A stretch of DNA of 64,000 nt from an archaeon (GTDB lineage Archaea; Asgardarchaeota; Thorarchaeia; Thorarchaeales; Thorarchaeaceae), in contig JAJRWI010000079.1 in assembly GCA_024276825.1 (NCBI GenBank), positions 32,001-96,000 of the forward strand, given 5' to 3'. Positions 699 through 10,558 of this stretch are shown here, one piece after another. The stretch's first letter is position 1, and each line of letters starts with the position of its first letter. Position numbers and translations under genes: made by a program. Under the pieces are notes generated by a model. The model was not told the origin of the DNA. It made no database searches and saw only the letters and a list, made by a program, of their open reading frames with translations.

Positions 699-1262
699 AT
701 GGAAGTCCCTCGCATTAAACATTTTATTAATTCGGAGGTTCTTAATAAGTGAGATTAATGAAGCAGAACAATGATTTTCAGATTAACAATGGAAAATTGT
801 TAATAATAGTAGGAATTCTTGAACATGTGTCACATGTATTTCGAATTCCGCCATTGTCAAATTATTCATGGAATGAAAATAATTGAAAGAGCTGATCATT
901 ACTGAAGTTTGCAGTCTTGCTGCTAGACTGAGAGCTATGTTTTCATTATCTATTTCAATAGCATTCAACATGCCACAATGGGATAAAAGAATGAATAATC
1001 ATGATGCATGTGCAGGATAATGCCATTTTTGGGGTGTCTACTGCATTTTTCGTTGTATCTCGCCTCATCTGACTGGTATTATTTGCAAATATTTCTCATT
1101 GACTTCTGGCGGCTTGTACACCAACATTCAGCTAATTGGAATATGCATGAAATCCATCATTAAGATGATAGAAGTAATAATGTTTGTCAATAATACACAA
1201 TATTCAACTAGGACCATGATAAGCCTTAAAATGAGAAAATAGCAAAAAAAAAATACAAGTAT

Positions 1263-1277
1263 TTAATGATTCATTAA
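1263..1277. promoter_or_regulatory. 7-1-7 palindrome TTAATGA-T-TCATTAA overlapping a TATA-like element; candidate operator of the peptide operon
   Basis: Perfect inverted repeat 26 bp upstream of ATG 1304, preceded by an A-run (about 1244-1253). Confidence 0.45.
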
Positions 1278-1303
1278 CTTGGCCAATGCTTAAGGGGATC
1301 AAT

Positions 1304-1669
1304 ATGTTGTCGAAAGACAGTAAGCAAGCATTTATAGCGCTATTTCCATTGGCTGCACTAGGAATAACTGCATTTTTCAATCTGGGAGAACTCCATGTTG
1401 TTCAAGGCAATATTATCGATGTTCTATATGTCTATGGATACATCAATATGAATGATACAGTTCCACTTTGGATCCTCACACTTCTTTTTGGAACGGGAGG
1501 ATATGCATTCTATTTCTTAGGAACAACTTGGGCCCAATTGAAAGCAATAGCTAATTTGTATTCAATTCCTTGGGCAGCTGCTGCGATTATTCTCGCAGCG
1601 TTTGGTGCCGAGCCAGCTGCGGCAGCTGCTGGTTTAATTGGTCTGGCATATGTCACCGTTGGGGCATAG
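1304..1669 (+). CDS. Putative circular (head-to-tail cyclised) bacteriocin/archaeocin precursor, 121 aa
   Basis: GGGGA SD before ATG 1304 (ORF track starts at 1286). Hydrophobic leader ends ...VVQGN|IIDVLY. The Ala/Gly-rich core ends ...AAAAAGLIGLAYVTVGA. First gene of a SpoIIM/Yip1/ABC operon. Confidence 0.6.
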   Translation: MLSKDSKQAFIALFPLAALGITAFFNLGELHVVQGNIIDVLYVYGYINMNDTVPLWILTLLFGTGGYAFYFLGTTWAQLKAIANLYSIPWAAAAIILAAFGAEPAAAAAGLIGLAYVTVGA

Positions 1670-1679
1670 CGAATTAGTA

Positions 1680-2255
1680 ATGGATTATGGGGGATTCAAC
1701 TCAATGATTTCAATGAAGTATTCCTCAACAATTCTAATATTGGGCATGCTGTTGGGGATTCTGGCTGGAACTACTGAGAATATTGATTCATCATCTCCAA
1801 AGAACATTGATTTTGCCTACCATCCCTCTTTTTTTTCCATCTTATGTAATAACATTGGAGTTGTATTAACCCTTATTCTAGGTGGAATTATCCTATTTTC
1901 CATCCCCACCATATTAGTGGTATTATTAAATGGTATTCGTACTGGTCTGACAATTATGATATGTATCAGAAGCTCAAATCTCATGCCCATATTGGCAGGC
2001 ATTCTTCCTCATGGAGTATTTGAGCTGTCTGGATATGTGTTTGCAGCCACCATAGGTCTTGAAAGTACGCGATTGATCATTGATGTGATGCTAGATGGCC
2101 CTTCAAGAAATCAAGGGCCAAGTTTGAAACAAGGCCTCAATTCTTATTTGACAAATGATTATATGAAATATATCATATTGTCAATAATTCTCATAACAAT
2201 GGGCGCATTAATTGAGAGCACATGTTCTTTATATCTGATGGAGATGTTTGCATGA
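1680..2255 (+). CDS. SpoIIM / DUF95 family membrane protein
   Basis: Motifs SILCNNIGV..LILGG, PTILVVLLNG, ILPHGVFEL and a C-terminal GALIE. Start probably ATG 1680 or slightly later. Confidence 0.88.
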   Translation: MDYGGFNSMISMKYSSTILILGMLLGILAGTTENIDSSSPKNIDFAYHPSFFSILCNNIGVVLTLILGGIILFSIPTILVVLLNGIRTGLTIMICIRSSNLMPILAGILPHGVFELSGYVFAATIGLESTRLIIDVMLDGPSRNQGPSLKQGLNSYLTNDYMKYIILSIILITMGALIESTCSLYLMEMFA

Positions 2256-2938
2256 ACGATGATCATTCTACTGATGGATCAGTGGTATCATTAGTGAACG
2301 GGTATTTAGGAGTCAAGAGCGGACTTAAGTTAATATTGCCTGCTCTTTTTAAGCCATGGAGCGCCTTTATAGAGGTTGCTGATAAGAAGTCCAGTCGAAG
2401 AATCGCATTATTTCCATTGATTGTAGTGGCATTAATGCAATTCTTGTTTATCATTCAGGTGATACTTTACATTTTTCATAAAAAGGTAATTGATGGTGAT
2501 ATAGTTCTTTTACCCGGAACAACAGAGGAAACATACTATTACTCGTTTTACACAGCGACATTGCTAAGCACAATTTCAGCAGTTGTCATCGTTTGGATGG
2601 GAGTTGCTGCAATAAGCTATTTTGTTTGCAGATTGATGAATTATCAATTGAACTTCGGGCAGCTTCTAACATTATCCTCATTTTCCTTACTTCCAACAGC
2701 GATAAGTATGTCAATTGGCACAACCATTTTGATATTCTTAGGTCCTGAAGTACTATTTGCTTGGGCTAACACTATTCAACTTTTTGCAATAATGAATGGG
2801 ACAATCATAATATGGGAGAGCATTATTTTGATGTATATACTAGTCAATCTTGCTGACATCAACACAAAAAGGGCTTTCATTGTAGGGATCATATCTTCAG
2901 TTATCCCCCATTTAATTGGACTACTGTCAATAGCCTGA
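2252..2938 (+). CDS. Yip1-family membrane protein
   Basis: LFKPWSAF N-terminal motif, about 5 TM helices, F.QLL.LSSFSLLP motif; ATGA overlap with the upstream stop. Confidence 0.75.
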   Translation: MNDDHSTDGSVVSLVNGYLGVKSGLKLILPALFKPWSAFIEVADKKSSRRIALFPLIVVALMQFLFIIQVILYIFHKKVIDGDIVLLPGTTEETYYYSFYTATLLSTISAVVIVWMGVAAISYFVCRLMNYQLNFGQLLTLSSFSLLPTAISMSIGTTILIFLGPEVLFAWANTIQLFAIMNGTIIIWESIILMYILVNLADINTKRAFIVGIISSVIPHLIGLLSIA

Positions 2939-2940
2939 AG

Positions 2941-4416
2941 GTGAATATGAAAACAGAAATGAGGAGTAATGCCTTGAATATTATTCTTGAAGCACTGAAA
3001 TCCAGATTTGGAAGCATTATTTTTGCTCTGCATTTCTTTTTTATTGGCAGTCTATTGATGCTAATATTCCCTCTTTTTGTCCCACCACCAAGGACAGAAA
3101 TACCAGCTAGCGACTTGTATAGAATAATCCTAAATGGCAGTATAACATCCATACTTTCATCACTTATTATTGCACCTGCATTCGGCTTCGGAATCGCTAA
3201 TTGGTTCTTTTCAAAACGTTATCCCTTGCAACAATGGGCAGATTTCCCAATTGATGGCAGGCAAATCAATGCCAATATGGTTTCAGTCGTTTTTGAATTA
3301 AGCATTTCATATTCTGCATTTAGTCTTCTAGAACCGATACTGAGAATTCATAATTTGCTGAATTTCACTCAAAGAGTTATTTTTGTTGCTTTGGTTCTTC
3401 TAGAAATATTTGGATTGACGCTAATAGCTGTAAGTGGCATAATCTTTTTGGTTTATTCAGCGTCTGTATCTAATCTTCATAGCACAAGAAGAATCTTGCC
3501 CTTCTTTTTCTTATCCATAGTTGGTGCAATTGGTTCCCAGTTTATTCTGATAGGAGGATTGGGAAACCCGTTGAGTGGAAATGCTGGGTCAGTTCAATTC
3601 GTATTCGAATCTCAGATATTAAACATAATTCAAAGACTCATAGCTGGAGATGTAGTATTGGATTATTTCATCATTCTGTCAGGATTACTCATTGCAGCAA
3701 TGACTGTCTTTGTGGTAACGGGGAAAATCATCAATCAGGGGTTAGAAAAGGCCAGACGAGGTGATTCACTCCACGAAGAATCGATGAGGGAGGAATTCAT
3801 TGAGCATCCATCGATAGAGATTCTACGAATAATGCTCACGGATCAATACACAGTGGGAAGACCGTTTTTAATTGCAATTATTCTGGGCATGATGTCATTT
3901 GGATTTTTGCAATTGATGCTAAACCAACCCGTTAATCTTGCCTTAATTCTTATGTTATTAATCCCAACAATTGGAACAATGGAGTCATTGTTTGTTGCAA
4001 CCATTGCTGGCAAGAACACTCTCAATTTTTATCGAGAGAGTCCAAATGGCATTCGCTTCTACTTTGGGATACAAGTATGCTTTTCATCTTTGATTACATT
4101 GATTGTATCAATAGTGAGCATATGCGTAATTGGATTCACGATTGGGTATTTGCCCTCTTTATCTGAGTTGAATTCATATTTGATATTTGTTCCGATATCG
4201 GTTATAATATCAGTCATGATGGCGACTATTCTTCATGCTCTACTCAAGCCGACATCAATTGATGACCCCGTTGTTATCTTAATCTGGCCAATTGTGATCA
4301 CTCTAAACGTGATTATAATGACATACTTAAGCATGGCCTCTTTGATCACAATATTTTCTTTTGTGATATTCATTGCGGCTATTTCATTTACATTAATGGA
4401 GGAGATCAATAGATGA
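2941..4416 (+). CDS. Large polytopic membrane protein (putative exporter/maturation protein)
   Basis: 491 aa, roughly a dozen hydrophobic segments, coupled to the downstream ABC ATPase. Confidence 0.7.
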   Translation: MNMKTEMRSNALNIILEALKSRFGSIIFALHFFFIGSLLMLIFPLFVPPPRTEIPASDLYRIILNGSITSILSSLIIAPAFGFGIANWFFSKRYPLQQWADFPIDGRQINANMVSVVFELSISYSAFSLLEPILRIHNLLNFTQRVIFVALVLLEIFGLTLIAVSGIIFLVYSASVSNLHSTRRILPFFFLSIVGAIGSQFILIGGLGNPLSGNAGSVQFVFESQILNIIQRLIAGDVVLDYFIILSGLLIAAMTVFVVTGKIINQGLEKARRGDSLHEESMREEFIEHPSIEILRIMLTDQYTVGRPFLIAIILGMMSFGFLQLMLNQPVNLALILMLLIPTIGTMESLFVATIAGKNTLNFYRESPNGIRFYFGIQVCFSSLITLIVSIVSICVIGFTIGYLPSLSELNSYLIFVPISVIISVMMATILHALLKPTSIDDPVVILIWPIVITLNVIIMTYLSMASLITIFSFVIFIAAISFTLMEEINR

Positions 4417-5159
4417 ATGCAGATTCAATATCAAGACCTGCAGTTGTTGTAAGAAATGTTACAAAGAAATATGGTAAACTCACAGTCCTTGATAACATTA
4501 GCTTCAATATTAGCCATGATGAGGTTGTAGGGCTTGTCGGGCCAAATGGATCAGGAAAGAGCACTTTACTAAGAATTCTGAAGGGAGGACTTTATCCTAC
4601 AACTGGTGAGGTTATTATTGGGAACTTCAGTATCAATAAGCAGCCTGACTCTATTCGAAGAATAACAGGAATCGCACATGATGAGCCTGTTCTTTTCGAA
4701 ATGATGACAGGGATGCAGTTCTTGCATTTCGTTGCAAGTATTTATCGGGTCAAACCACAAACAGCAAAAGAGTCTATTGGCTATTGGGTCAGGGCTCTTG
4801 GCCTAGACAATCAAATCAGAAACAGGATTGAAACATATTCCCATGGAATGAAAAAGAGACTTTCAATAGTCGCTTCATTGATTCATGATCCATTTCTATT
4901 ACTCCTTGATGAACCAACACAGGGACTAGATCCTGATACACGAACAATTTACATGCAAAGGATAATGAATAATGCATTTAAATCAGACAGAGTTGTAATA
5001 ATAAGCACGCACAGATTGGATATTATTGATGATTTGTGCTCGCGAGTATTAGTAATTCGAGGGGGCAGAATTATTGAAGATGGTTCGATTGAATTCATAA
5101 AAACAAAATACAATGCTGATGACATTGAAGAGGCGTATCTTCTCACTGATGATGAATAG
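4413..5159 (+). CDS. ABC transporter ATP-binding protein
   Basis: Walker A GPNGSGKS, signature YSHGMKKR, Walker B LLLLDEPT, H-loop STH. Confidence 0.95.
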   Translation: MNADSISRPAVVVRNVTKKYGKLTVLDNISFNISHDEVVGLVGPNGSGKSTLLRILKGGLYPTTGEVIIGNFSINKQPDSIRRITGIAHDEPVLFEMMTGMQFLHFVASIYRVKPQTAKESIGYWVRALGLDNQIRNRIETYSHGMKKRLSIVASLIHDPFLLLLDEPTQGLDPDTRTIYMQRIMNNAFKSDRVVIISTHRLDIIDDLCSRVLVIRGGRIIEDGSIEFIKTKYNADDIEEAYLLTDDE

Positions 5160-5174
5160 GGAGATCTCATTGGA

Positions 5175-6116
5175 ATGAAAATAGTTGTTAGGAATGTTTC
5201 ATATAAATATGGTCGCAAGAAGGCACTTGATAATATTTCATTAGATATAGGACCGGGAGTAACTGGACTCATCGGAGTAAATGGCTCAGGAAAAACAACC
5301 CTGTTGAAATTGATACTCGGAATCATTCCAATTCAAGAGGGCGAGATATTAATCAATGATTCCCCAGTGCCCATTAAAGATAAAGAGAAACTTGTTGAAA
5401 TTGGATATATCCCCGAAATACCTGCATTAGATAATGAATTGACCTTACATGAATACCTTGGCTTCTTTCTGAGTATTTTGGAAACTGCTGGGGGTAAAAC
5501 AACAGGACTTGATGAAATCATAGAAATTGTCGGACTGGGCGATGCCAAGAATAGAAGAATATCTGACTATTCACGTGGAATGAAACAGAGGGCCTGCATT
5601 AGTCAATCCATATTGTGCAAGAGAAGGATATTAATCCTTGATGAGCCCCTCTCACATTTGGACCCTCTTAGTAGAATCCAATTCAAGGAGCTATTCAGAG
5701 AATGTGCTGATGATGGGGCAATAGTATTAATCTCCTCACACATTCTAGGCGAGCTGGATGAAATATGCGACAATGTCGTTATTCTGAATGACGGAAAATT
5801 AATTGAATATGGAGCAATTGGTCAATTAAGAAACAAATATGAATCTAATGTGGTTCAATGGGTTATAGAAACAGATAGCCCGATAGAATTGGCAGATCTA
5901 ATTGAAAATGAGCTTAACCCTTCGGCGATCGAAGTCATAGGTAATGTAATCAGGGTGCTAGTCGGGTCTAATCCCAGAATGAAAAGCTTGTTTTTTGGAT
6001 TGCTGGCAAGGACATGTAATATTGAAATCTTCAGGTTCTATGATAGAAGTTTGAGCCTTGAGGGCATATTGAAAAGAAGCATGGGGGACAATAAGAATGA
6101 ATCGCAAATTCATTAA
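5175..6116 (+). CDS. ABC transporter ATP-binding protein (ABC-2/DrrA type, with C-terminal domain)
   Basis: GVNGSGKT, YSRGMKQR, ILILDEP, SSHIL. Confidence 0.95.
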   Translation: MKIVVRNVSYKYGRKKALDNISLDIGPGVTGLIGVNGSGKTTLLKLILGIIPIQEGEILINDSPVPIKDKEKLVEIGYIPEIPALDNELTLHEYLGFFLSILETAGGKTTGLDEIIEIVGLGDAKNRRISDYSRGMKQRACISQSILCKRRILILDEPLSHLDPLSRIQFKELFRECADDGAIVLISSHILGELDEICDNVVILNDGKLIEYGAIGQLRNKYESNVVQWVIETDSPIELADLIENELNPSAIEVIGNVIRVLVGSNPRMKSLFFGLLARTCNIEIFRFYDRSLSLEGILKRSMGDNKNESQIH

Positions 6117-6855
6117 GGAGATTATAAAGAGGGAATACCGAATATTTGCAAAAGGCCATCAATTCATTATTGTTCTGGCATTCTCTGTGGCAGTTGCAGT
6201 GCTCCTATTTACTTCAATAGTAACCTTATCAAAAGATGTTATAGATCTCTTGTTTTCTCAATTTGAGATCGGGTACTATTTCTTAACAAGCTATGCAATC
6301 ATCCTATTTGGAGTAATCACCATATTCAATTCAGCAACAGGATTTTCACGTGAACATGAACACAACATGCATCAGGTCTTATACATCCTTCCAATTGACA
6401 CTTCAAGTGTGATTATCGGAAAAGCGCTAGCCATATGGTCTTGCACCATTCTTACCACTTCGATACCATATTTCACAATCATCATAACACTGATTGCTTT
6501 TCTTGGTTTGCAGGTATCTATTTGGATTGTTATTGAGCTATATGCCATCTTTGCTTTTTCCATGATTCTATTGTCAAGCTATTCCATGATCGCATCTATT
6601 GTTTCAAAGTCCAATGGAGTTTCATTCTCGATTAGTCTAATGACTTTGATAGGCGCAATTATGCTTAAGGAAAATAGAGTCCTAAAATATCCATCCCCAT
6701 TTGGATTCTTTGATTATTTGACATATGGTGTTGTGATTCATGAGTTAGACCCAATAGCTGTGTTTATTTTCTTATTCGCCTGTGCCATGGGCATTATGAG
6801 TTCTCTTGCGATGTCATGGTTTCTTTTTGAGAGGAGAGCAGCATACATGTTTTAG
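6097..6855 (+). CDS. ABC-2 type exporter permease
   Basis: IIKREYR N-terminus, FSREHE...LYILPI....VIIGK motif, 6 TM segments. Confidence 0.88.
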   Translation: MNRKFIKEIIKREYRIFAKGHQFIIVLAFSVAVAVLLFTSIVTLSKDVIDLLFSQFEIGYYFLTSYAIILFGVITIFNSATGFSREHEHNMHQVLYILPIDTSSVIIGKALAIWSCTILTTSIPYFTIIITLIAFLGLQVSIWIVIELYAIFAFSMILLSSYSMIASIVSKSNGVSFSISLMTLIGAIMLKENRVLKYPSPFGFFDYLTYGVVIHELDPIAVFIFLFACAMGIMSSLAMSWFLFERRAAYMF

Positions 6856-6914
6856 TTCATTATGCTTTTCATAGATGCAATGAGTCGTGAACCGCCCACA
6901 ATCATTCAATTTTC

Positions 6915-7006
6915 GGGGTTGCATTTAGATGCATAGAGGTTAGACAGAGTTGGACACCAATCAAAGGATCATCTAAATGATACTCTGAAATTTTGGAGGG
7001 CTTAAA
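6915..7006 (+). repeat. Dispersed intergenic repeat, copy 1 (5' half only)
   Basis: GGGTTGC...AGATGC.TAGAGGT.AGACA.AGTTGGACACCAATCAAAG.ATCATCTAAATGATACTCT is nearly identical to 14612-14705. Confidence 0.85.
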
Positions 7007-7188
7007 GCAATTCCCCAGCCATCGGGGTTTTCAGAGCCATGTCTTTGAAAGACATCAAGGGAGATTGTGGCTTTAACAGGACCTGCAAAACAAAGACCAA
7101 GAAGATCACACATGATTAATCACTTGTTAGCCACATGATTTGCTTGTTATTATTTTTTGTATCTCATTTGGATGAAAGAGGCAAAGTA

Positions 7189-7825
7189 TTATGATTCATA
7201 GCGACACATCTTTACTTCGATATTCCTCGGAGATGAGTCATCGAGCATATTCTCCATCTTATCATCAACATAGAGTTTCAGATTCTTTCCTTGTATTGGT
7301 CTGACATCGATGGAACGGAATCTATTGGACATCAATGACAACTTAGTTAAGGATCTGCAATTGCTCAGTGGGGAGAGATCAATTGACTTGATTTTGTTGT
7401 GGTTTATTGTCAGATTAGAGAGTGTAGTGCATCCTGCCAAAGGTGAAAGATCAAGTGATCTTAGTGTGTTGTGACTTATTATTAGCGATTCTAGTGATTT
7501 GCACTCTTTCAAAGGCGACAGATCAAGTATTGTGAACTTGTCACAATAATAGATAGACAGGCTTTTGAGATTGATACATGACGATAATGGTGAGAGGTCA
7601 ATACTGAGCGCTCTTAGTTGTACTAGATCCATTTTCAATCAGATACTCATTTCCTTCAAGAGGCGAGAGGTCAGAGTCATTAGTGCTATACATTTCAAGT
7701 CGGAATGGTCTATCGTTTGGAATGTCATAGGTTGTAAGACCTTCATGATAGGAGATCTGAAAGACCCGCAACTTTGTTTTATTTTTATTATTATCTTGCA
7801 GAGTATAATCACCGCCGTATCTCAT
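7189..7825 (-). pseudogene. Leucine-rich repeat protein, frameshifted
   Basis: Repeats IDLSPLxxCxxLxxLxIxxN. The upstream frame (MRYGG...DLSPLEGNEYLIE) joins MDLVQLRALSIDLSPL if one base is removed from the run at 7632-7635. Confidence 0.7.
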
Positions 7826-9712: not shown

Positions 9713-10558
9713 ATGAGTGACAGACCAACATTTCTTACAGTGACCTATTCCGACTCTGGACTTACCACAATGGGTCATGAGAAGAAAATGATTCGCGAGA
9801 AGGATGTTAAGTTTGACAATGAAGACGGAATTCTCGAGTTGACAGATGTTCGTATTGTGTGGTATAAGAAGCCAAAGAAGAGTCGATTTGGCGGACTTGG
9901 AGGATTAGGCGCTGTTGCAGGAGCCATCGCAGGAGCTGTTGCTGCTGATGTTATCGGGTCAAGTATAGGAGGCATTGGAGGAAGAGCAATAAGGCGTGCA
10001 GGTCATGCTATGGCCAATGCCGCTATTGGCGCAGCTGTCTATTCATGGACTGCAGAACAATTCTACAACAAGGGACCAAACGGCGAAACTGAAAGTCTGG
10101 CAGTCCCACTGATTGCCATAAGTAATGCGCAGCAGAGCGGCAAGAACCTAGTGATTGAGCTTGCATCTGGTGGAACCATGATTTTCAGCTTCAAACAGCC
10201 AAAGGTCATTCCTGCATTGATTGCAAACATCAGGTCAGCTCAAGATGAGGGTAAGTGTCCATATTGTGGTGCCAGTGCAAAGAACGCTGCACAATGTCCA
10301 AATTGTGGGGCCCAGCTTGGTGGTTCAGGTGTCATTGATGCACCATCTGAAAGTCCAGTAGGGGACATGCCAACAGGCTCTGTTCATATCACTGTACATG
10401 AGGAAGGCGGCGTTAGAAAAGCCACAGTACGAAGTGCTGATGGTGAGATGCATGTTGAGGTCCATGAGGGCAGTGGGAGTTTCTACTGTCCAAATTGTGG
10501 ACAGCAATTAGCAGCTGGTTCTAGATTCTGCAATAAGTGTGGATACAAGGTCGCATAA
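9713..10558 (+). CDS. Zinc-ribbon protein with PH-like N-terminal region and Gly/Ala-rich insert
   Basis: Two CxxC...CxxC ribbons (CPYCG..CPNCG; CPNCG..CNKCG) and a GILELTDVRIVW PH-like strand motif; GGTGA SD before ATG 9713. Confidence 0.7.
   Translation: MSDRPTFLTVTYSDSGLTTMGHEKKMIREKDVKFDNEDGILELTDVRIVWYKKPKKSRFGGLGGLGAVAGAIAGAVAADVIGSSIGGIGGRAIRRAGHAMANAAIGAAVYSWTAEQFYNKGPNGETESLAVPLIAISNAQQSGKNLVIELASGGTMIFSFKQPKVIPALIANIRSAQDEGKCPYCGASAKNAAQCPNCGAQLGGSGVIDAPSESPVGDMPTGSVHITVHEEGGVRKATVRSADGEMHVEVHEGSGSFYCPNCGQQLAAGSRFCNKCGYKVA

Follow-up and report, generated by a model that had tools for sequence, protein, structure and literature searches.

A candidate circular-bacteriocin-like peptide precursor at the head of a SpoIIM/DUF95 gene cluster in an Asgard archaeon

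The gene content and conservation patterns described here suggest a bacteriocin-like function for a short gene of an Asgard archaeon. This gene occupies positions 1304-1669 of a 64,000-nucleotide stretch of Thorarchaeaceae DNA (hereafter the window; contig JAJRWI010000079.1 of GenBank assembly GCA_024276825.1, positions 32,001 to 96,000), and on balance it is probably the precursor of a secreted, membrane-active, circular-bacteriocin-like peptide of a new archaeal family. We favor this reading because of the set and order of the neighboring genes, the links of the neighboring SpoIIM protein to bacterial clusters, the synteny found in a second genome (G319, of the same family as the window's genome and of a different genus), the pattern of conservation among the precursor's relatives, and the properties of its core and leader. 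Two narrower claims are held more tentatively: it is possible, though somewhat doubtful, that the product is an Asgard head-to-tail cyclised peptide of 85-87 residues whose precursor is unrelated in sequence to all bacterial ones, and closure of the ring specifically between Ile37 and Ala121 is about as uncertain. Leader cleavage and its exact position, export, ring closure and antimicrobial activity are what we infer. The gene, its proposed parts and its putative signals are as follows.

1304-1669, forward strand: precursor gene, from ATG 1304 to the stop codon TAG 1667-1669, 121 amino acids (aa)
1304-1411, forward strand: proposed leader, 36 codons
1412-1666, forward strand: proposed core, 85 codons, Ile37 to Ala121
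1260-1267, forward strand: possible archaeal TATA box TATTTAAT, putative and picked out by eye, ~40 nt upstream of the start codon
1292-1298, forward strand: Shine-Dalgarno-like GGGGATC, picked out by eye, 5-6 nt before ATG 1304

The longest frame of the precursor opens at ATG 1286, upstream of ATG 1304. We favor the latter start because of the Shine-Dalgarno-like motif and because the same arrangement before the start codon, GGGAT.nAATATG, is common to the window precursor and its orthologue in G319. Leader residues 1-36 comprise a basic start (K4, K7) followed by a 17-residue hydrophobic stretch, and the proposed junction lies between Asn36 (AAT, 1409-1411) and Ile37 (ATT, 1412-1414). Among core residues 37-121 there are two Asp, one Glu and one Lys, Arg, His and Cys are absent, and the last residue is Ala; the computed pI is 4.05, the net charge -2, the grand average of hydropathy (GRAVY) 1.12, and the mass 8933 Da for the linear form or about 8915 Da for a ring. 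An earlier reading made from the letters of the window (the sequence-only reading) had described the layout of 36 + 85 residues, the Ile codon at 1412, the count of charged core residues, the lack of Cys and the final Ala, and all of these were confirmed.

The precursor gene is the first of seven co-directional genes (1304-6855) that are tightly packed or overlapping. The other six are given below.

1638-2255, forward strand: SpoIIM/DUF95 membrane protein (PF01944, E 3.4e-25) with an LPHGVFE motif; longest open reading frame (ORF) from TTG 1638
2222-2938, forward strand: Yip1-domain membrane protein (PF04893, E 8.3e-10), with a weak YknW_fam match
2941-4416, forward strand: 491-aa polytopic membrane protein, no Pfam match, orthologue in G319
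4413-5159, forward strand: ABC ATPase 1 (PF00005, E 1.1e-27)
5175-6116, forward strand: ABC ATPase 2, lantibiotic-protection/GldA-like (PF00005, E 1.7e-27; TIGR03740, E 3.7e-44, below cut-off)
6097-6855, forward strand: ABC-2-type permease, partner of ATPase 2 (weak ABC2_membrane_4 match, E 0.006), orthologue in G319

For the SpoIIM gene, a start at ATG 1680 is likelier than one at TTG 1638. The ATG of the Yip1 gene at 2252 overlaps the SpoIIM stop codon as ATGA, and the 491-aa protein is coupled translationally to ABC ATPase 1 in the same form (ATGA). The ABC-2 permease is likely to be a self-protection or export pump, and the 491-aa protein may, by analogy, hold the position of the circular-bacteriocin 'B' protein. 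To our knowledge, no family model exists for large membrane proteins of the As-48B, CclB or CycB type. When an alignment of the large membrane protein was used in a profile search, only the window's own protein came back, with 8000 candidates scored, too few to be informative, and a scan of genome contigs with the same alignment found none. G319 carries the same seven genes in the same order from the orthologous precursor on, between different flanking genes.

Circular-bacteriocin loci have been mined by the joint presence of a precursor gene, a DUF95 gene and a gene for an ATP-binding protein (PMC8534725). This combination is found both in the window operon, with two ABC ATPases, and in G319. 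The cerecyclin cluster (cycABCD-I, Yip1, cycEFG) adds a membrane protein, an immunity gene, Yip1 and an ABC transporter (PMC8534725), and SpoIIM/DUF95 beside a small hydrophobic peptide gene is a class-defining marker of cyclised peptides in bacteria (PMC13289728, PMC8534725). A tblastn search of 72,556 plasmids with the window SpoIIM gave five matches, all annotated as SpoIIM (Clostridium, Bacillus, Anoxybacillus), and both of the two that were inspected sit in annotated circular-bacteriocin clusters. On B. cereus pFORC087.2, the cluster consists of a three-gene ABC pump, Yip1, two uberolysin/carnocyclin-type genes, a 543-aa hypothetical membrane protein, SpoIIM, an ATPase and a 53-aa ORF; on a C. 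perfringens plasmid, it consists of a circularin-type gene, SpoIIM, an ATPase and a 62-aa ORF. The window SpoIIM is 30% identical over 115 aa to that of the B. cereus cluster (E 8e-12), including the (I)LPHG(V/I)xE motif, and also matches the SpoIIM of the plantacyclin B21AG cluster (E 4e-5), while ABC ATPase 1 matches the B. cereus cluster ATPase (E 1e-12). Pairwise comparison with the B. cereus counterparts found no similarity for the Yip1 protein or for the large membrane protein (against the 543-aa protein). SpoIIM by itself is not diagnostic. Of 14 control genomes, seven contain a match to the family (three of these seven are archaeal), and a second SpoIIM-domain protein, 459 aa long and polytopic, is encoded in an unrelated context of the window's genome (G000:C80:69097-69411; L023, 1462-2841, reverse strand).

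The precursor family is small. Only three relatives were found among ~15 billion proteins: an exhaustive HMMER search of 1.84 billion representative proteins returned the precursor itself and two relatives (three matches), and a profile search of a 5.8-billion-cluster collection added one more. The relatives have E values of 2.8e-8 to 3.1e-7 (1.84 billion representatives). A word-index protein search with the precursor returned itself alone. The resulting four proteins, each a singleton cluster from NCBI assemblies, come so far only from Thorarchaeota-type metagenome-assembled genomes (MAGs), and one of them, NWF94816.1 from a 'Candidatus Thorarchaeota archaeon' MAG, is identical to the G319 product. 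Among 400 genomes of the phylum, a relative was found only in G319 (E 2.6e-12); a weak match in genome G005 (E 9e-4) is a 77-aa ORF in an unrelated context and was taken as chance. The gene is single-copy in its own genome and was not found in the two other genomes of the window's genus (86-88% complete). Given relatives at significant E values and the conserved gene order in G319, the ORF is a genuine gene and not a chance ORF, one that is conserved, very rare and patchy in distribution.

We assessed conservation as the mean pairwise BLOSUM62 score per column of the four-sequence family alignment. The N-terminal 18 residues of the leader are conserved (score 2.6), with the basic start followed by A-L-(F/M)-P-L-(A/F)-A, and the following 18 residues are variable (score -0.1) and include a 3-residue indel. 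Conservation returns from residue 37 (score 3.1) in the block (I/F)-I-(D/N)-V-L..(F/Y)-G-(Y/I)-I. The leader-core boundary that the sequence-only reading had drawn after residue 36 thus coincides exactly with the point at which family conservation resumes, and this pattern supports it as a leader-core junction, give or take a residue or two, at which the precursor would be cleaved. The Asn-Ile pair, which had been expected to recur in homologues, does not do so: the junctions of the four members read N↓I, H↓F, S↓F and S↓F, with Asn not kept at residue -1 and a hydrophobic residue at +1 in all four (I, F, F, F). The leader motif occurs nowhere else in the genome of this organism and is therefore no generic signal peptide.

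The predicted cores of the four members are 85, 87, 85 and 85 residues long and carry the motif G-x-T-W-(A/G)-Q and an Ala/Gly-rich tail. Read back from the stop codon, the four proteins share the ending Phi-(V/L)-(T/S)-(V/L)-(G/A)-(A/E), with Y, F or C as Phi; the conservation of this hexapeptide suggests that the extreme C-terminus is under constraint. The terminal Ala, likewise expected to be general, is found in only half of the members (last residues A, A, E and E). In circular bacteriocins both ends of the core are hydrophobic and the C-terminus bears no extension (PMC10028692, PMC6131525). The first core residue of Ent53B and circularin A must be a helix-forming hydrophobic one, and circularin A is no longer produced when its C-terminal residue is charged (PMC10028692). 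All four archaeal members conform to the N-terminal rule, while the C-terminal rule holds for the window protein and is broken by the two Glu-ended relatives.

In its overall design, the precursor resembles subgroup ii of the circular bacteriocins, the gassericin A group, as the sequence-only reading had proposed. The attribution of an N↓I site to this group is upheld: in plantacyclin B21AG, gassericin A and acidocin B, the leader is removed by a cut after Asn and before Ile (PMC7452424), and the plantacyclin B21AG gene on pB21AG01 encodes a leader of 33 residues that opens with a basic part and includes a hydrophobic stretch, the junction ...TVN↓IVWIA... and the tail ...GGTAA. On this plasmid the precursor gene is directly followed by SpoIIM and then by an ATPase and an ABC-2 permease. 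In group ii, the leader is 22-33 residues long and the core 58, and butyrivibriocin AR10 has a pI of 3.88, a net charge of -2 and a hydrophobicity of 1.00 (PMC6131525). The window core shares the subgroup's low pI and charge and high hydrophobicity, and its relatives' cores have pI values of 4.6 to about 5.8 and GRAVY of 1.25-1.45. The proposed likeness to subgroup ii therefore stands for pI, charge and GRAVY, which are close to those of butyrivibriocin AR10, but does not extend to family homology or to a conserved N↓I site and terminal Ala. It is a likeness of design and not of detectable descent. In ESM-Atlas, the nearest named clusters, for the whole precursor and for the core alone, were the circular-bacteriocin families PF12173, PF09221 and PF16942 (scores 0.78-0.84). 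The range that the sequence-only reading gave as typical for the mature ring, 58-70 residues, agrees with the literature (PMC7132975), but it is already exceeded by altitudin S of Bacillus altitudinis, whose 132-aa precursor has a 56-aa leader and whose 76-aa ring is the largest reported (bioRxiv 10.1101/2025.10.31.685828).

Circular bacteriocins are compact, saposin-like bundles of four or five helices in which a helix contains the ligation site. Structure prediction with AlphaFold2 (AF2) gave helical models of low confidence. The full precursor, modelled from the four-sequence alignment, was all-helical, with a predicted local distance difference test score (pLDDT) of 59 and a predicted template modelling score (pTM) of 0.46. 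The core alone reached pLDDT 68 and pTM 0.54, with values of 76-87 over its first 40 residues and below 50 over its last 16. In this low-confidence core model, helices span residues 2-7, 19-35, 40-47, 54-64 and 68-84, and both ends are helical; the model is compatible with a ligation site within a helix, at a confidence too low to rely on. Foldseek found no match in the PDB. The best hit of an exhaustive VIA-align comparison (Z 5.1) was to helical bundles of the death-domain/XRE type, which is below the noise level for helical models; the known circular-bacteriocin structures are absent from the VIA-align list, which does not exclude them. No pilin and no known membrane-protein fold or family was matched by the precursor models or sequences.

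Combining these observations, we propose the following course for the peptide. The 121-aa precursor would be made with a leader of 32-36 residues, consisting of a basic N-terminus and one hydrophobic helix, which may keep the precursor at the membrane and offer it to a complex of SpoIIM/DUF95, the large membrane protein and the ATPase, whose genes directly follow. Cleavage would then take off the leader at the (N/H/S)↓(I/F) junction or one or two residues away from it, and the almost uncharged core of 85-87 residues would be exported, its ends most likely being joined into a ring. Protection of the producer would fall to the Yip1 protein and to the second ABC module (ATPase 2 and the ABC-2 permease). 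An adaptation of the peptide to ether-lipid membranes, as raised by the sequence-only reading, is speculation.

Several results weigh against a circular-bacteriocin-like product. None of the four family members matched Pfam or NCBIfam models (including Pfam PF12173 and the NCBIfam class IIc cyclic bacteriocin model) at E up to 10, a sequence profile search of the PDB with the precursor came back empty, and hhalign gave a probability of 0.7% for the precursor family against plantacyclin B21AG. The AF2 models are of low confidence and found no saposin-like or bacteriocin structure among their matches, and the ESM-Atlas look-alikes are a weak lead, with scores below the 0.9 threshold. Cores of 85-87 residues lie beyond the range of 58-70 and above the 76 of altitudin S, and Glu is the last residue in two of the four members, unlike the rule for circularin A. 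Circular-bacteriocin clusters include a gene for a small hydrophobic or cationic immunity protein, but no small ORF that could be one is present within the operon at 1304-6855, where the Yip1 protein and the ABC-2 pump may stand in for one. SpoIIM is also widespread in archaea with no known bacteriocin link, and the precursor is hydrophobic enough to be a plain membrane protein of three or four helices.

This last point leads to the alternative that the product is neither cleaved nor cyclised, and is instead a 3-4-helix membrane protein serving as a structural or regulatory subunit of a SpoIIM/Yip1/ABC complex, with the 'leader' as its first transmembrane helix. A GRAVY of 1.1-1.45, the presence of 0-4 charged residues per core and hydrophobic segments of membrane-spanning length would all suit such a subunit, as would the all-helical full-length AF2 model, the N-terminal part of the leader being as conserved as the core, the many archaeal SpoIIM-family proteins with no known peptide product, and the lack of homology to known bacteriocins. 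We nevertheless consider it rather unlikely, since a variable, indel-bearing linker placed exactly before a conserved block, together with a C-terminal motif anchored on the stop codon, points to a leader/core design, and since the entire gene set and its order mirror bacterial circular-bacteriocin loci (PMC8534725). The patchy occurrence of the family in 2 of 400 Asgard genomes also fits an accessory weapon better than a transporter subunit, and the ESM look-alikes, weak as they are, belong to bacteriocin families.

Cleavage and export could also yield a hydrophobic peptide that stays linear, whether bacteriocin-like or surface-associated. The leader resembles a signal peptide, the residues around the junction include small ones (VQG↓N, AHG↓S) that would suit type I signal peptidase, and the C-terminal Glu of two members is hard to square with the ligation rules (PMC10028692). 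However, the possible signal-peptidase site shifts position in family member P0002, the leader motif was not found in other proteins of the genome, and the C-terminal hexapeptide stands in register with the stop codon, so that the very end of the peptide seems to matter. The marker role in bacteria of SpoIIM/DUF95 beside a small hydrophobic gene likewise speaks for cyclisation (PMC13289728, PMC8534725), and we regard a linear product as quite unlikely. Far less probable still is a conjugative or DNA-uptake pilin like TrbC, VirB2 or CedA1, some of which are also cyclised. Such pilins are of similar size and layout, with a long leader and two or three hydrophobic segments, but no Pfam or NCBIfam pilin model was matched at E up to 10, no structural match was obtained, and the neighbors are SpoIIM, Yip1 and ABC genes, with no VirB4-, VirB6- or CedB-type genes among them.

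Similar SpoIIM genes are present in three more genomes of the window's family (G318, G336 and G347). In G318 (L035, G318:C10, 6566-12747) the genes are SpoIIM, Yip1, an ATPase, a permease, a divergent peptide ORF, an ATPase and a 544-aa 12TM_1 membrane protein, a repertoire the same as that of the window with an unrelated peptide. The window's 491-aa protein has no detectable similarity to the 12TM_1 protein. The G318 peptide ORF (9827-10144, reverse strand) encodes 106 aa, is Ala-rich and hydrophobic, and ends in ...AAGGAA; a circular permutation relating its Ala-rich segment to the C-terminal tail of the window core was rejected (z = 1.3, 35/300 shuffles reaching the score). G336 (L034, G336:C134, 4629-7274) holds what appears to be a remnant of the G318 type (SpoIIM, Yip1, ATPase and a truncated permease) with no peptide gene, and this remnant adjoins a gene for a 1322-aa surface protein. 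In G347 (L036, G347:C131, 4885-7586) a 142-aa Ala-rich hydrophobic ORF, an M48 peptidase and an RDD-SpoIIM fusion lie in a row, a cassette whose combination of M48 and SpoIIM recalls the M48-containing altitudin S clusters (bioRxiv 10.1101/2025.10.31.685828). The similarity of the 142-aa ORF to the window precursor is marginal (z = 3.0, 4/300 shuffles reaching the score). The G318 and G347 peptides seem by eye to carry the window's leader motif, but the leader HMM gave no score for them, and the idea of a common leader was rejected. SpoIIM modules thus recur in this archaeal family with differing small hydrophobic ORFs, as would be expected for a fast-evolving peptide served by conserved machinery.

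The cluster also differs from its surroundings in composition, with a G+C content of 37-38% against 43-48% in the flanks (49-53% against 55-58% in G319). The low-G+C block extends from 750 to 7640 (37-40%) and takes in the cluster, a 580-bp upstream spacer and a leucine-rich-repeat gene (7189-7638, reverse strand). The low G+C is compatible with an accessory island, and membrane-protein composition may explain part of it. No tRNA gene and no direct repeats flank the cluster as signals of insertion. The same-genus genomes are uninformative on insertion, since a contig ends at the orthologous mutase and a search for PmbA at E <= 1e-20 was negative. Just upstream of the cluster, at 3-722 on the reverse strand, lies the N-terminal part of a PmbA/TldD-family metallopeptidase gene, situated in the higher-GC flank and not beside the cluster in G319. 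TldD and PmbA process some bacterial peptide antibiotics. An inverted repeat with 24-nt arms (79% complementary, 38 nt apart) is found at 6908-6993, right after the last cluster gene. In G319 (L021, G319:C75, ~1950-2005), a tandem direct repeat of ~27 nt (GGGATGGTCTAAAGGGAGGCCACC...) stands immediately upstream of the orthologous precursor; it has no counterpart in the window and may be regulatory. Within the cluster, 34 nt of the leader coding sequence (1334-1367) are 71% identical to a stretch of the Yip1 gene (2402-2435), with I-A-L-F-P-L, the opening of a hydrophobic helix, encoded by both. The G319 pair is alike in this respect (V-A-L-M-P-L in the precursor, V-A-L-P-P-L in Yip1), and the resemblance could be chance or a shared docking motif.

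Reports of circular bacteriocins come nearly all from Bacillota, and a few from Actinobacteria and Thermotogae (PMC8534725), and we found no archaeal example in the literature searched. If a head-to-tail cyclised peptide of 85-87 residues is indeed made, it would be the first circular 'bacteriocin' known in Archaea and would have the largest ring in its class. With half of the family ending in Glu, a ligation rule unlike the bacterial one would then be implied, such as loss of the final residue in the course of transpeptidation. A working system would extend this peptide class to a second domain of life and enlarge its size range, and would provide a very divergent SpoIIM/DUF95 machinery, a comparison with which could help to explain how the leader is taken off and the ring is closed. 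Such a system would further indicate antagonism by means of peptides among sediment archaea, the group to which the relatives of eukaryotes belong. Were the product a plain membrane subunit, the interest would be minor.

Compared with known systems, the gene content corresponds to that of cerecyclin-type clusters and pFORC087.2, which likewise combine one or more precursors with a large membrane protein, DUF95/SpoIIM, an ATPase, Yip1 and an accessory ABC transporter. Their peptides, unlike that of the window, are cationic, of the uberolysin/carnocyclin type and about 60-70 aa long, and the clusters include a small immunity gene and follow another gene order. Altitudin S shares the unusually long precursor, long leader and large ring, showing that the class is not confined to 58-70 residues, but is strongly cationic (pI about 11, +13) and of low hydrophobicity, and its cluster includes an M48 peptidase that the window cluster lacks.

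The peptide itself resembles subgroup ii. Both have a long leader that begins with a basic part and includes a hydrophobic stretch, a predicted or known cut before a hydrophobic residue (N↓I in the window as in plantacyclin B21AG), an acidic or neutral and very hydrophobic core with an Ala/Gly-rich tail and a final Ala, a SpoIIM gene directly after the precursor, and an ABC ATPase and ABC-2 permease in the operon. In contrast to subgroup ii (whose members include acidocin B and plantaricyclin A; Pfam PF12173), the core is 85-87 aa and not 58, the window cluster has Yip1, the 491-aa membrane protein and a second ATPase but no small immunity gene, the host is an archaeon, and two of the four members of the family end in Glu. 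The cyclic T-pilin (VirB2) and RP4 pilin (TrbC) are also small and hydrophobic, with a long leader and a ring of 74-78 residues, but their genetic context is wholly different from that of the window and no family match links them to it. Set against the known class of circular bacteriocins as a whole, the archaeal family is distinguished by five features: its host domain, the lack of sequence homology, a core of 85-87 residues, the lack of a small immunity gene, and a Glu at the end of half of its members.

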